DNA of 40,942 nt. Source: a virus (Duplodnaviria > Heunggongvirae > Uroviricota > Caudoviricetes). The position numbers were made by a program, and so were the translations under genes. The notes beneath the pieces are model-generated. The model was not told the origin of the DNA, did no database searches, and saw nothing but the letters and a program-made list of their open reading frames with translations. Shown here piece after piece: positions 3,339-35,873 of this stretch. The stretch covers positions 1-40,942 of the IMG/VR virus record IMGVR_UViG_2531839450_000010; one strand, 5' to 3'. The number at the start of each line of letters is the position of its first letter. Within the stretch, counting starts at the first letter, position 1.

Positions 3339-3355
3339 ATTGCTCTAATTAATTT
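3339..3355 (+). promoter_or_regulatory. C1 repressor operator-like 17-mer upstream of ssb
   Basis: ATTGCTCTAATTAATTT versus the P1 C1 operator consensus ATTGCTCTAATAAATTT (one mismatch), about 20 bp upstream of the ssb start. Confidence 0.6.
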
Positions 3356-29198: not shown

Positions 29199-29215
29199 AA
29201 TGCTCTAATAAATTT
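29199..29215 (+). promoter_or_regulatory. C1 operator-like 17-mer (Op51-like) at the immI promoter
   Basis: AATGCTCTAATAAATTT, one mismatch to the consensus; a possible -35/-10 pair (TTGTAT-N17-TATCTT) overlaps it. Confidence 0.7.
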
Positions 29216-30870: not shown

Positions 30871-30887
30871 TTTGCTCTAATAAATTT
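30871..30887 (+). promoter_or_regulatory. C1 operator-like 17-mer (Op53-like) upstream of kilA
   Basis: TTTGCTCTAATAAATTT, one mismatch to the consensus, about 70 bp upstream of the kilA start. Confidence 0.7.
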
Positions 30888-31757: not shown

Positions 31758-31822
31758 CAGACGTAGTAAGAACCACCAGCATTGTAATGCTGGCTAAAGT
31801 CACTTTCCTGAGCTGTATAACG

Positions 31823-32630
31823 ATGAGCGATTTTACTTTTTCTGGCTATGAATTGGCCTGCTTTGTAACACACTCCGGTCTATCCCGTAGCGCCGGGCAT
31901 ATCCTGTCGCAATGTGCAAATCTCGCGGCAACAACCAGTGAATACTTCATTCACAAGCCTCACCGCCTGATCGCGGCAGAAACTGGTTATAGCCAATCAA
32001 CCGTCGTTCGTGCATTCCGTGAAGCTGTAAACAAAGGAATTCTGTCTGTAGAGATTGTTATCGGCGATCACCGTGAACGTCGCGCTAACCTGTACCGGTT
32101 TACACCATCCTTTTTGGCCTTCGCACAACAAGCCAAAAATGCGCTGATTGAAAGCAAATTAAAGATCTCTTCAGCGGCAACCAAGGTTAAAGCTGTTCTC
32201 GCTAAGACATTGGCTTTATTTAATTTTTTATCCACACCCCCATGTCAAAATGATACCCCCTCCCCCTGTCAGGATGACGTGGCAATAAAGAATAAGAAGT
32301 CACAAGTTAAAAAACAAAAGATCAGTTTCCGGCGGTGCCGGAACGACCAGACTCAAAAAATTGACTTCATGGATCGCTGAGGCAAAAGCAAAGGCTGACA
32401 ATCTGCGGTTATCCAAAAAACGCGCTCAAAAACATGAGTTCAAGCAGAAAGTAGAGGCGGCAGCGCGGAAATATGCTTACCTGAAGAACAAGCGTTCTCC
32501 TGATATTTGCGGGATATCAAACTTCGATAATCTGCCGCATTGCATGACGGTAAACGAAGCTCTTAATGCGGTTTTCGCCAAAAATAAAGATAACGAAAAA
32601 TGGGGTATACCGGCAGGATTCAGAGGGTGA
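31823..32630 (+). pseudogene. repL: Lytic replicon initiator RepL, reading frame interrupted by a +1/-1 shift in an A-rich tract
   Basis: Frame A (from MSDFTFSGYELACF...) stops at 32380, while an overlapping frame open from about 32289 continues ...SVSGGAGTTRLKKLTSWIAEAK... to 32630; together about 280 aa. A6 and A4 runs at 32309..32319 and an A6 run at 32355..32360 are the candidate slip points. Confidence 0.6.
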
Positions 32631-32893
32631 TAGATTGCTCTAATCTGGAGTCACCTGGCATTTTCAGTTTGAGGTCGGAGATGCAATCTGATTTTTACAG
32701 TTAGCGATCACTTTTTGCAGGGCATCGTTGAGACATATCCATATATAAAAACCCAAAGCCAGATCAAAACTTGTACTGATAAAAACACAGCTAACCATCA
32801 CAACTTGTAACGTTTATAATGAGTAAAAGAGTGATACATTGCTACTTTTACATATTTTTTGACTTAATTCATGGATAGTAATGGAGATGCATA

Positions 32894-33949
32894 ATGACTT
32901 ATGCTGGCACACAAACAGCAGATAACGCCGGGGATACCATGAAATCGTATGCTATTTGGAATAATAAAGGTGGCGTAGGAAAGACCTACTTATCTTTCGC
33001 TATGGCCTGTGAATACGCAAGGCAAAATCCAGAAAAGCGTATTATTTTTGCAGATATGTGCCCGCAGGCTAACTTATCTGAAATATTGCTCGGCGGTAAC
33101 GGTACTGGTGCTGCTAACCTCGCGAGCTTAATTCAACAACGAAAAACTGTCGGTGGGTACTTTGACAGAAGAACTCGCAGCCCCCACATGCTTACCGGTT
33201 CAGAAACAAGTTTCTTAATTCATGTCTCTGAAATTAACGGACATGTCCCTGACAATGTATTTTTGATTGCAGGCGACCCAAGCCTGGAAGTTCAGGCGCA
33301 AGTAATCAATCAGTTAAGCAGCGTAAACTTACCAGTTGACTCATGGAAAAGCATCCACCTGTGGCTACGAGATTTGCTTGTTGCATGTGCACAACAACAA
33401 GGTATCGAAGAAACCATTTGCTTTATTGATTGCAACCCCAGTTTCTCTGCCTATACCGAACTATCACTGATAGCAGCAAATGCAATTATAATACCTTGCT
33501 CAAGTGATGGTTCTTCGGCTCGAGCAGTGGATAACCTAAGCCAGTTGGTTTATGGCGTTGGAGTACAAAACGATTATCGTTCTGTTAACTTTTACGATCG
33601 GTGTCAACAGTTTGGTCTAGCGGTTCCTGTCATTCATTCTCTAGTTTTTAATCGTTCGACAGAGTATGACAAACGAGCAAGTAAAGCGTTTTCGGCAATG
33701 TTCGACGAAATCAGGGATAGAGCTGAAAATCTGCGGACGAATAAACCAACAGCGTTCCAAGGCGGAAATTTAAAAACGTTTACTGTGCCAGATAACCATT
33801 CCGTAGCTATAGTATCTTCCCATCTAGGAAGACCTCTATTTGATATAAAACCAGGCAGATATCAGATCCATGATACTGAGCCACAAATCAATAATGAACC
33901 ATTAGAAAGATATGGTGCAGCAATCGAACGTCTTGTTCAGAGTTTATAG
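32894..33949 (+). CDS. ParA/MinD-family (deviant Walker A) ATPase with no adjacent ParB partner
   Basis: Deviant Walker A motif WNNKGGVGKTY near the N-terminus and a Walker B-like FIDCNP. An alternative start at 32939 (MKSYAIW...) is more typical for the family; the ATG at 32894 has a GGAG RBS. Confidence 0.75.
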   Translation: MTYAGTQTADNAGDTMKSYAIWNNKGGVGKTYLSFAMACEYARQNPEKRIIFADMCPQANLSEILLGGNGTGAANLASLIQQRKTVGGYFDRRTRSPHMLTGSETSFLIHVSEINGHVPDNVFLIAGDPSLEVQAQVINQLSSVNLPVDSWKSIHLWLRDLLVACAQQQGIEETICFIDCNPSFSAYTELSLIAANAIIIPCSSDGSSARAVDNLSQLVYGVGVQNDYRSVNFYDRCQQFGLAVPVIHSLVFNRSTEYDKRASKAFSAMFDEIRDRAENLRTNKPTAFQGGNLKTFTVPDNHSVAIVSSHLGRPLFDIKPGRYQIHDTEPQINNEPLERYGAAIERLVQSL

Positions 33950-33980
33950 TGGCTTATCTCACTCATAATGGCTAAAAAAA

Positions 33981-34010
33981 GGCTGCAACAGAGGTTGCAG
34001 CCTTTTTTAT
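33981..34010. terminator. Bidirectional rho-independent terminator
   Basis: A7 tract, GGCTGCAAC-AGAG-GTTGCAGCC stem-loop, then TTTTTTAT; sits between convergent genes. Confidence 0.75.
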
Positions 34011-34019
34011 AAAATTACA

Positions 34020-34307
34020 TTAACAGACTGGTAGCGATAGTAAATTATTATTCCATCGATTGTCTGCATACGTTCTAATAAACTGCCTTCCACCATTACC
34101 AGGATTAACAACCCCAACGTCTACACGATTACCTGCATTATCTGTTACATAGAATGTATGGAGATTATTATCAATAGCATTAATTACCTGCTCAACAGTC
34201 CATTTCCCATTGCTAGTATTAAATTGAGGACTTCCCACATGAGTAATATGCTCATGGATTGATTGCGAGCCGGAGAGGGTAATGCAAGTAATGCGTACAT
34301 CAGCCAT
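34020..34307 (-). CDS. Small conserved hypothetical protein (possibly DUF3892-type; family not verified)
   Basis: Likely start is the ATG at 34307 with an AGGAAG RBS 7 nt upstream, giving 95 aa: MADVRITCITLSGSQSIHEHITHVGS...NNNLLSLPVC. The track ORF starts further upstream. Confidence 0.5.
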   Translation of the reverse strand: MADVRITCITLSGSQSIHEHITHVGSPQFNTSNGKWTVEQVINAIDNNLHTFYVTDNAGNRVDVGVVNPGNGGRQFIRTYADNRWNNNLLSLPVC

Positions 34308-34595
34308 ATATACTTCCTTTATTCTATAGATTATAGGAATTGCGTTGTCCAAAAAACAAACAACACAATAACAATAAAGAAACATACACACAACAAAAAC
34401 TAACGCTATTTATTGATAGATTTGCCTGATGAATGCTAGCTCTCTTTGCTGCCTAGCACTCAAACAAATAACAGAAGAAAGCCCCAGATAACATTACGCG
34501 TCCTGCAAGACGCTTAACATTAATCTGAGGCCATATCCATGCTTAGCATATCTAGATTAACCCTCTCCCCTTTTAAGGAGCAAGGAATTTTACTG

Positions 34596-35192
34596 CTATG
34601 CCGCCTTTCCAGTTATGGATTCAGCGACAAGAACAACCCCATGCTTACTTCGATCTGGGTGTTCACTCCATATCTCAGATTCAGGAATACTTACCCCGTC
34701 ATAGCAAACACGTTCGCCGTCAAACGGGTAATACTGAGCGGCATCGGTGTCGAGGATAAACACTTTTAGCTCGGAAGAGCGACGGGCGATGTGTTGCCAA
34801 AGAGCTTTTCCACCTTCGTATTGCTCATTATCACTAAGCAAAACAACACCAGCTTTTGAGGCTACGGTTTCGTAAACAAAAGTAGCTAAACCGACATCAC
34901 GGACGGTTCCATCAACCACGATACCTTCAATCTGGGCAACATCGCTATCCTCCCAGAACTTCCTTACCAGTACGCCTTCAAGCTGCGGGCGACGTTGAAG
35001 TTCAAGAGTAGCGACAACCTTATGGCGCATATCACCATCGATAACAGAAGGCGCAGCCTCTATTACAGCTGCAAATGGGGTTTTGGAATCCCATATAACC
35101 TGGTAAAGCACACCCTGGATGGTAACTCCGTCCAGGATCGAAAATCGACGAGCGACAGTACCCGGGGAGTACGACATTGGAATCACAGCCAT
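34596..35192 (-). CDS. Hypothetical protein; weak GNAT-like signature
   Basis: Likely start is the ATG at 35192 (GGGGGA RBS), giving 198 aa. The stretch EQYEGGKALWQHIA loosely resembles an acetyl-CoA binding motif; not verified. Confidence 0.35.
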   Translation of the reverse strand: MAVIPMSYSPGTVARRFSILDGVTIQGVLYQVIWDSKTPFAAVIEAAPSVIDGDMRHKVVATLELQRRPQLEGVLVRKFWEDSDVAQIEGIVVDGTVRDVGLATFVYETVASKAGVVLLSDNEQYEGGKALWQHIARRSSELKVFILDTDAAQYYPFDGERVCYDGVSIPESEIWSEHPDRSKHGVVLVAESITGKAA

Positions 35193-35363
35193 TTTAGAGT
35201 CCCCCTTTAACAGTACAGGCACAAACATCTACCTCAATAATTGTAGTTTATTAGAACATTAATAATCTAACATAAAACTCCAGACAATGTTATCGATGCA
35301 TGTTTATATAAAATAGTTATAAAAAAAGCTCCCGCAGGAGCTTTAAAATACAAGGGATGACTC

Positions 35364-35873
35364 TTAATCCCACTCAATCCAGTTGTAAACGATACGAAGT
35401 GACGGACGCACAGCGGCAGTCACATCTTCGGTACTAAAGTCGATTGCATCACTGTAGATTTTGCAGTCCAACATTTCAATTGTTGTAGCAGCTTTTGTCA
35501 CAGCGTTAACCCCGGAAGATTTGGATTCAGGGGTAGCAGCCATCGTGATATCAACATAGTCCTTCGCCGCAATGCGATCTTTAATGAACTGAAGAATATC
35601 GCCTTCGATAGTCTCCACGCACTGGACCTGGATTTCCCCAGAGTTTCGAATTGGACCGTGCTGGTTGAACTTCACACCATTCGGACCATAGTCCTCCACA
35701 TCCTCGCGGGTCATTTCAGGAATTTGCGACGTGCGAACCAGTACGCTGATATCTTCATGGCCTGCAAAAGTGAGCTGGAATTCAGAAGATACCAGTCGTT
35801 CGCCTTTGGCCGCGTTGGCAGTATAGCGGCCCTTAATAAATTTACGGTTTCCCTTAGTGTTATTGTGCCCCAT
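35364..35873 (-). CDS. Tail structural protein (tail-tube-sized)
   Basis: 169 aa, last gene of the sheath-containing operon. Confidence 0.4.
   Translation of the reverse strand: MGHNNTKGNRKFIKGRYTANAAKGERLVSSEFQLTFAGHEDISVLVRTSQIPEMTREDVEDYGPNGVKFNQHGPIRNSGEIQVQCVETIEGDILQFIKDRIAAKDYVDITMAATPESKSSGVNAVTKAATTIEMLDCKIYSDAIDFSTEDVTAAVRPSLRIVYNWIEWD

Follow-up and report, generated by a model that had tools for sequence, protein, structure and literature searches.

An orphan ParA-like ATPase in a variable cargo slot of P1-like phage-plasmids and its possible role in conflict between mobile elements

In phage lambda, the slot downstream of the repressor gene cI is occupied by rexAB. Several systems built around ParA-family ATPases are also close to the gene considered here. 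ParI, an orphan ParA encoded by a genomic island of Pseudomonas putida KT2440, has been reported to interfere with the partition of an IncP-7 plasmid (Miyakoshi 2012, via PMC8544851) and, in the form in which that work is cited there, provides a defined mechanism by which mobile elements could come into conflict. The ParA/Soj-HEPN dyads of the MAE_18760 family have been predicted to be toxin-antitoxin or conflict systems, with the ATPase as the postulated antitoxin (Anantharaman et al., 2013; PMC3710099). For a relative in Pseudomonas phage phi297, a partition role has been put forward, and the presence of parA without parB was speculated to be the cause of unstable lysogeny (Krylov et al.; PMC3564109); this speculation is the only published comment on the family found in the literature. 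Here we describe a gene of this family in IMG/VR virus record IMGVR_UViG_2531839450_000010, a stretch of 40,942 nucleotides hereafter called the window, where it lies between repL and bplB together with genes for a 95-aa DUF3892 protein and a 198-aa GNAT-fold protein.

The window is a P1-like phage-plasmid, with 100% identity to the Escherichia coli plasmid pUTME-7-2 over positions 32631-34600, and to the left of the island are icd, ant, kilA and repL, to its right bplB, pmgG, 21 and 22. An initial annotation made from the sequence had singled out these three open reading frames, all of which are confirmed, as the best candidate in the window for an accessory or defence-type module. The accessory part of that proposal is firmly supported: among about 680 bplB-carrying (P1-like) plasmids in PLSDB, the 198-aa gene adjoins bplB in 125 and the block of ParA-like and DUF3892 genes is present in 40 (and in 38 of 5426 complete E. 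coli genomes), so that the three are far from being core genes of every P1-like genome, and at least six different gene sets fill the slot among P1-like elements. The repL-bplB interval is thus a true variable cargo hotspot of P1-like phage-plasmids, between the lytic replicon and the tail operon. That the slot has been filled by recombination with three unrelated mobile genes, of which the orphan ParA-type ATPase acts in competition between elements, is a reading to which we give about even chances. The features of the island are the following.

32722..34472: cassette A, a low-GC insert of about 1.75 kb holding the convergent ParA-like and DUF3892 genes, delimited by junction alignments
32894..33949, plus strand: ParA-like ATPase gene, 351 aa (336 aa if translation starts at M16, position 32939)
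33975..34008: bidirectional intrinsic terminator, common to the convergent ParA-like and DUF3892 genes
34020..34307, minus strand: stand-alone DUF3892 protein, 95 aa (MADVRITC...LPVC)
34473..34562, plus strand: hok/sok mRNA leader remnant, hok open reading frame missing
34596..35192, minus strand: GNAT-fold acyltransferase-like protein, 198 aa (an in-frame upstream ATG at 35228 would give 210 aa)
up to 35325-35344: cassette B, the 198-aa gene, extending to the bplB terminator
35325..35344, minus strand: terminator of the bplB tail operon from the terminator scan (dG -13.4 kcal/mol, z -4.4), right edge of the variable region

The ParA-like ATPase and its relatives

The window protein is a member of the ParA/MinD (SIMIBI) ATPase superfamily with a ParA-type fold. 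It matches the Pfam families AAA_31 (5.9e-15) and CbiA (4.6e-7), both above the cut-offs, as well as PHROG 164 (6.5e-43), and its ATP-binding motifs are intact: a deviant Walker A (WNNKGGVGKT) together with DMCPQAN and FIDCNPS, with the Walker A' and Walker B aspartates, all invariant across 37 homologues. Its AlphaFold2 model (pLDDT, the predicted local distance difference test score, 87.4) finds ParA, Soj and McdA as the best Foldseek matches in the Protein Data Bank (PDB), with E around 1e-11, probability 1.00 and 14-20% identity. The superfamily fold and the deviant Walker A are held in common with P1 ParA (type Ia, PDB 3ez2), from which the window protein differs in having no N-terminal helix-turn-helix domain, ParB or parS, and to which it is 16% identical. 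The NCBIfam equivalog for ParA partition proteins, NF041546, scores 39.8 bits, short of its 180-bit cut-off, and the NCBIfam search of the island proteins gave nothing above cut-off. Translation is preceded by GGAG 7 nt 5' of 32894, and most homologues begin at the equivalent of M16.

The initial annotation had described the gene as lacking a ParB partner and obvious centromere repeats, and this holds: no ParB gene adjoins it, its neighbours being repL and the DUF3892 gene, and the repeat search found no centromere-type array nearby. A plasmid that is identical over 32631-34600 carries a canonical repA-parA-parB module about 6 kb away, and the ParA-like ATPase is thus a second, orphan ParA on this plasmid type. 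The family is large, with 4521 clusters at E <=1e-5 and members in at least 580 species genomes, archaea included, and it is conserved at 55-60% identity across phyla. The nearest prophage copies share about 90% of the protein sequence of the P1-like one and only about 75% of its DNA sequence, which indicates strong purifying selection on the gene.

Neighbour clustering over 86 genome loci and 80 viral loci of ParA-like genes returned a HEPN protein as the sole conserved partner, in a HEPN clade, and just a cI/cro context in prophages. For the solo clade, which includes the window protein, about 70 related loci show no neighbour that is conserved, and only transposases recur. In 40 of the 71 viral loci outside P1-like elements, a CI-type repressor gene stands directly upstream of the ParA-like gene and is co-oriented with it, with cro and cII divergent, and the same layout of cI followed by the ParA-like gene is seen in four enterobacterial prophages and in two phages in culture, phi297 of Pseudomonas (71% identical) and ST11-VIM1phi8.2 of Klebsiella. 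The family members closest to the window protein stand right after cI in lambdoid prophages. This is the place and orientation of lambda rexA-rexB, directly after the repressor and divergent from cro, although the ParA-like ATPase is encoded by a single gene without sequence or fold relationship to RexA or RexB, and the P1-like copy is not beside the repressor but in a comparable accessory slot that is prone to swapping. The place behind cI points to expression by the lysogen.

A monophyletic sister clade, 37-41% identical to the window protein, is paired with a HEPN RNase gene in 14 of 14 cases. The HEPN protein is about 200 aa long, is encoded 3-19 nt downstream, carries an RHSFAHG motif and matches Pfam HEPN_RiboL-PSP at 1e-11; no co-oriented HEPN (Rx4-6H) gene is found immediately downstream of the ParA-like gene in the window or in the entire solo clade. 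The arrangement is comparable to the ParA/Soj-HEPN dyads (PMC3710099) in that the sister clade is likewise HEPN-paired, and differs from them in that the window clade is without HEPN and that the partner in the sister clade belongs to HEPN_RiboL-PSP in Pfam, as against the MAE_18760 family of that paper. As an observation in its own right, the operon of ParA-like and HEPN genes occurs in cyanobacteria, Frankia, Micromonospora, Geobacter, Verrucomicrobia and four viral contigs (loci L090-L103, L142, L144, L145 and L147; e.g., L091 6001-7648); it has no PADLOC entry and resembles the dyad type predicted in 2013.

The possibility that the ParA-like genes are preceded by a large non-coding element under conservation was considered and rejected, the upstream gaps being 85-1490 nt long and non-aligning. 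The sole exception is a GAAGTTATTTGTATCA motif about 50-70 nt before the start of alphaproteobacterial ParA-like copies only (loci L037, L039, L050, L051, L054, L060, L061 and L098). Several of its copies are flanked by an IS1595-family transposase gene and by 143-aa and 79-aa genes, and the motif could represent either an operator or a small mobile unit.

Mosaic architecture and cargo of the repL-bplB slot

By megablast against phage genomes, only the flanks are common to P1, P7, RCS47, SJ46 and others, and cassette A is covered by none of the 33 matching INPHARED phage records, in which coverage stays at or below 44%. The gene sets that take the same slot in other P1-like elements are listed below.

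P1: rlfA (DUF3800), rlfB and pmgF
P7: rapA and rapB
other elements: a small 81-aa open reading frame and hokD
other elements: a small open reading frame and the 198-aa gene
other elements: Ail/Lom and the 198-aa gene
other elements: IS605/TnpB and the 198-aa gene

It had been left undecided in the initial annotation whether the island genes are those normally found here in P1. P1 itself is without the ParA-like and DUF3892 genes, and neither rlfA nor rlfB is present in the slot here (no DNA or protein match); the identity holds in part for pmgF, with 43% over 65 aa in the 198-aa protein.

Homology of the backbone to other P1-like variants stops at 32721 (at 32667 or 32644, depending on the variant) and restarts at 34473. 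The spacers, described as AT-rich from the outset, have a GC content of 36-38%, as does the DUF3892 gene, whereas the phage genes on either side are at about 50%. The claim of a strong bidirectional terminator between the convergent genes is also borne out, as the 15-nt arms of 33975-34008 are 100% complementary, runs of A and T stand on both sides, and folding of the two strands gives dG values of -22.4 and -21.3 kcal/mol (z -5.5 and -7.2), with none of 200 shuffled sequences folding as well. In plasmids without the 198-aa gene, homology begins at window position 35322. Between the two cassettes, positions 34473-34562 are 95.6% identical over 90 nt to the leader 5' of hokD/mokW in other P1-like elements; this homology stops where the 198-aa gene sets in, the 3' end of which replaces the hok open reading frame. 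No intact hok/sok is recognised, the Rfam sok match reaching 23.7 bits against a gathering score of 59, and the segment is evidently a dead remnant of this type I toxin-antitoxin system, reduced to its leader. Sister plasmids have an intact hokD/mokW in the same slot, and the junction of the remnant with the 198-aa gene is common to RCS47 and phage 673R5. An Rfam scan of 32300-35500 gave nothing but sub-threshold, terminator-driven matches and the partial sok match. Judged from these junctions, the island is two blocks split by a hok/sok remnant and not a single three-gene unit, and in itself it is ordinary mosaic phage cargo.

The 95-aa protein is a full-length DUF3892 domain (Pfam PF13031, 1.5e-15, 57.8 bits against a cut-off of 22.3, profile positions 1-71 of 71) that also matches PHROG 8224 (1.4e-37), and its start follows AAGGAAG by 5 nt. 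Nearly all of its 113 homologue clusters are 89-100 aa long, with an invariant C8, H23 and C95, which may form a metal site, and a conserved HEHITHVG stretch. Published computational work has tied DUF3892 to conflict systems and likened its fold to those of double-stranded RNA-binding domains and ribosome hibernation factors. Homologues occur at an E. coli prophage/satellite junction, often close to prophage ends in IMG/VR, and in a Salmonella integrative and conjugative element (ICE) immediately before the gene of an FRG-domain protein with a match to the PADLOC candidate PDC-S15. DUF3892 is a recurrent cargo gene of prophages, satellites and ICEs. In the Salmonella ICE loci (L020-L023, 5001-6357) the FRG gene lies 26-161 nt past the DUF3892 gene on the same strand, the pair adjoins DEAD/ResIII helicase and DUF4917 genes, and DUF3892 and FRG may be a pair.

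The 198-aa protein, whose start is preceded by AAGGGGGA at 7 nt, has a GNAT fold. Its match to Pfam Acetyltransf_1 is sub-threshold (14.2 bits against a gathering score of 20.7, E 0.055), sequence searches place it in a narrow family of about 200-215 aa without a Pfam domain, and the family alignment shows only a motif-A-like R-x-x-G-x-A loop (R-D-V-G-L-A). P1 PmgF (98 aa) aligns with it over residues 4-66 only, at 43% identity (E 5e-16); P1 pmgF (L117 2775-3071) is without the GNAT core and corresponds to the N-terminal third of the 198-aa protein. An alignment confined to the N-terminus makes P1 pmgF look like a truncated relic, and the 198-aa gene is in all appearance its full-length counterpart; the annotation of pmgF as a 'putative morphogenetic function' probably needs revision. 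A comparison with the GNAT toxins AtaT and TacT shows that the 198-aa protein stays below the Pfam threshold and has no adjacent antitoxin gene, as no open reading frame lies in the interval to the hok remnant on one side or to the bplB terminator on the other, and with no antitoxin-like neighbour it is not classed as a GNAT toxin. An 88% identical copy stands solo in E. coli, bordering AlpA/DUF3987 islands that are inserted at several different places in the chromosome. These islands are P4-like, and in loci L110-L114 (5001-7321) the copy is convergent with the gene of a 545-aa protein, likewise at the island border, for which neither Pfam nor PADLOC gives a match.

The co-occurrence of the three genes was followed in about 86 ParA-like loci from prokaryote genomes and assemblies, the 71 viral loci outside P1-like elements lying outside this test. 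DUF3892 was found in none of them except one P1-like plasmid, and the three genes were not seen together there outside P1-like elements. By this distribution the three island genes appear as unrelated genes, each mobile alone in other elements, and not as one module.

Two further sets of observations concern the left flank. The repL gene (31787-32630) is broken into two open reading frames (31787-32380 and 32361-32630) with the lesion in the region 32309-32319, where two single A residues are lost from homopolymers (A6 vs A7 and A4 vs A5) relative to pUTME-7-2 and RCS47, in which the 846-bp gene is intact; either a homopolymer sequencing error or a genuine inactivation of the lytic replicon could be the cause. 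Near-consensus P1 C1 operators, with one mismatch each, are found at 3339-3355, 29199-29215 and 30871-30887 (0.18 expected by chance). In P1, Orlf is annotated 4 nt past repL, which places the slot behind a C1 operator, and alignment to the P1 repL-rlfA region reveals its counterpart in the window.

32635..32651, plus strand: C1-operator-like half-site straight after the repL stop, counterpart of Orlf/Op55

Only the first 11 nt of this site (32635-32645, ATTGCTCTAAT) follow the consensus, and no match to the 17-nt C1 consensus is found after repL at up to 3 mismatches.

Possible functions of the orphan ATPase

A role in defence or exclusion, with the ParA-like gene at its centre, is plausible from genomic context, namely the prophage location behind cI, the HEPN-paired relatives and the DUF3892 gene next to a PDC-S15 candidate in Salmonella. 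The competition between elements proposed above could proceed as follows. The ATPase would be made in the lysogen, it would form ATP-dependent dimers, probably on DNA, and it would exclude or abort superinfecting phages or disturb the partition of rival plasmids, as reported for ParI. Like ParI as it is presented in PMC8544851, the window protein is a ParB-less ParA-family ATPase on a horizontally acquired element. The HEPN-paired sister clade together with the ParI precedent favours a role in conflict between mobile elements. A bolder form of the proposal holds that the partner-less ParA-like proteins are a widespread single-gene exclusion system, expressed in lysogens and linked to ParA-HEPN, and that the repL-bplB slot is an unrecognised defence or exclusion hotspot; this is possible, and we put it forward tentatively.

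Several results weigh against a conflict role. Profile searches, named as a check in the initial annotation, assigned domains to the ParA-like (AAA_31) and DUF3892 proteins, while the 5027 models of PADLOC-DB v2.0.0 gave no match at E <=1 for any of the three proteins, none for the prophage relatives and the HEPN-paired versions of the ParA-like protein, and none for neighbouring cargo genes except the FRG neighbour of DUF3892. Around the solo ParA-like copies in chromosomes, the 133 immediate neighbours are for the most part transposases and housekeeping genes instead of defence islands, and the conservation of the family across phyla is unusual for an immune gene. The scan revealed no convincing sigma-70 promoter upstream of the ParA-like gene, and promoter sites were no more numerous than in shuffled sequence; by eye, a perfect TATAAT can be seen at 32815-32820, with a poor -35 element. 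As the slot of P1 follows a C1 operator, here reduced to a half-site, expression could be lytic instead of lysogenic. Literature searches found no published experimental work on the ParA-like family or on DUF3892.

It has to be considered whether the protein is instead an auxiliary segregation or positioning ATPase of the plasmid prophage, working with the ParB of the plasmid, with a distant partner or with none. The genuine ParA fold and motifs, the low-copy nature of the plasmid prophage that carries it and the partition role suggested for the phi297 homologue (Krylov et al.; PMC3564109) all agree with such a function, but it is opposed by the missing partner, by the copies that reside in integrated prophages and by a canonical ParAB encoded on this plasmid as well. 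A complete parA-parB is already present on P1-like plasmids, 94% of which are without the ParA-like gene, its close relatives reside in integrated prophages and at chromosomal sites flanked by insertion sequences (IS), where partition would be pointless, no centromere-like repeats were found, and the identity to P1 ParA is just 16%. We therefore regard a segregation role as improbable.

The solo proteins would be orphan, antitoxin-like regulators if they derived from ParA-HEPN dyads and were carried by phages as anti-defence or anti-addiction factors to neutralise HEPN toxins of host systems. We assign little probability to this explanation, to which the invariable presence of an RHSFAHG-bearing HEPN protein 3-19 nt downstream in the sister clade and the postulated antitoxin role of the ATPase in the similar ParA/Soj-HEPN dyads of the MAE_18760 family (PMC3710099) lend weight. 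The HEPN-paired members are found in cyanobacteria, actinobacteria, Geobacter and Verrucomicrobia, with none in enterobacteria, and share no more than 37-41% identity with the window protein. Measured against what is usual for antitoxins, the size of the solo clade is much greater and its conservation far stronger.

Passive hitch-hiking, in which the genes would serve neither phage nor host and be decaying or selfish cargo at a site that tolerates recombination, fits a slot that has room for IS605/TnpB, for a dead hok/sok and for a truncated pmgF, and it also fits the frequent location of chromosomal ParA-like copies beside transposases. It appears unlikely in view of the intact state of all three open reading frames, each with a Shine-Dalgarno-like sequence 5-7 nt upstream of its start (good ribosome-binding sites had been noted in the initial annotation for the 95-aa and 198-aa genes), the strong purifying selection on the ParA-like gene (about 90% protein vs about 75% DNA identity), the invariance of its catalytic core across phyla and its recurrent, specific position behind cI.

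A single co-functional three-gene defence system, the module envisaged at the outset, is very improbable and by distribution largely refuted: the 198-aa gene comes next in 40 of 40 plasmids with the ParA-like and DUF3892 genes, but about 85 further plasmids have the GNAT gene without the other two, a dead hok/sok leader separates the blocks, orientations are convergent and terminators separate, co-occurrence outside P1-like elements was not seen in the loci checked, and PADLOC gave no matches.

Significance for P1-like phage-plasmids

Resistance genes are moved by P1-like phage-plasmids, which are frequent in Escherichia from clinical and livestock sources, and knowledge of their cargo slots and of what fills them aids the reading of their genomes. 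One result of the present comparison is that pmgF now appears as the stump of a GNAT-fold gene. The part of the island worth experiment is the conserved orphan ParA-type ATPase, relatives of which stand behind prophage repressors. If it has no activity in phage exclusion or plasmid destabilisation, the island is ordinary mosaic cargo. If it does have such an activity, a ParA-type ATPase would represent a new mechanistic class among the conflict systems of mobile elements, and this would also account for the ParA-HEPN dyads predicted in 2013.

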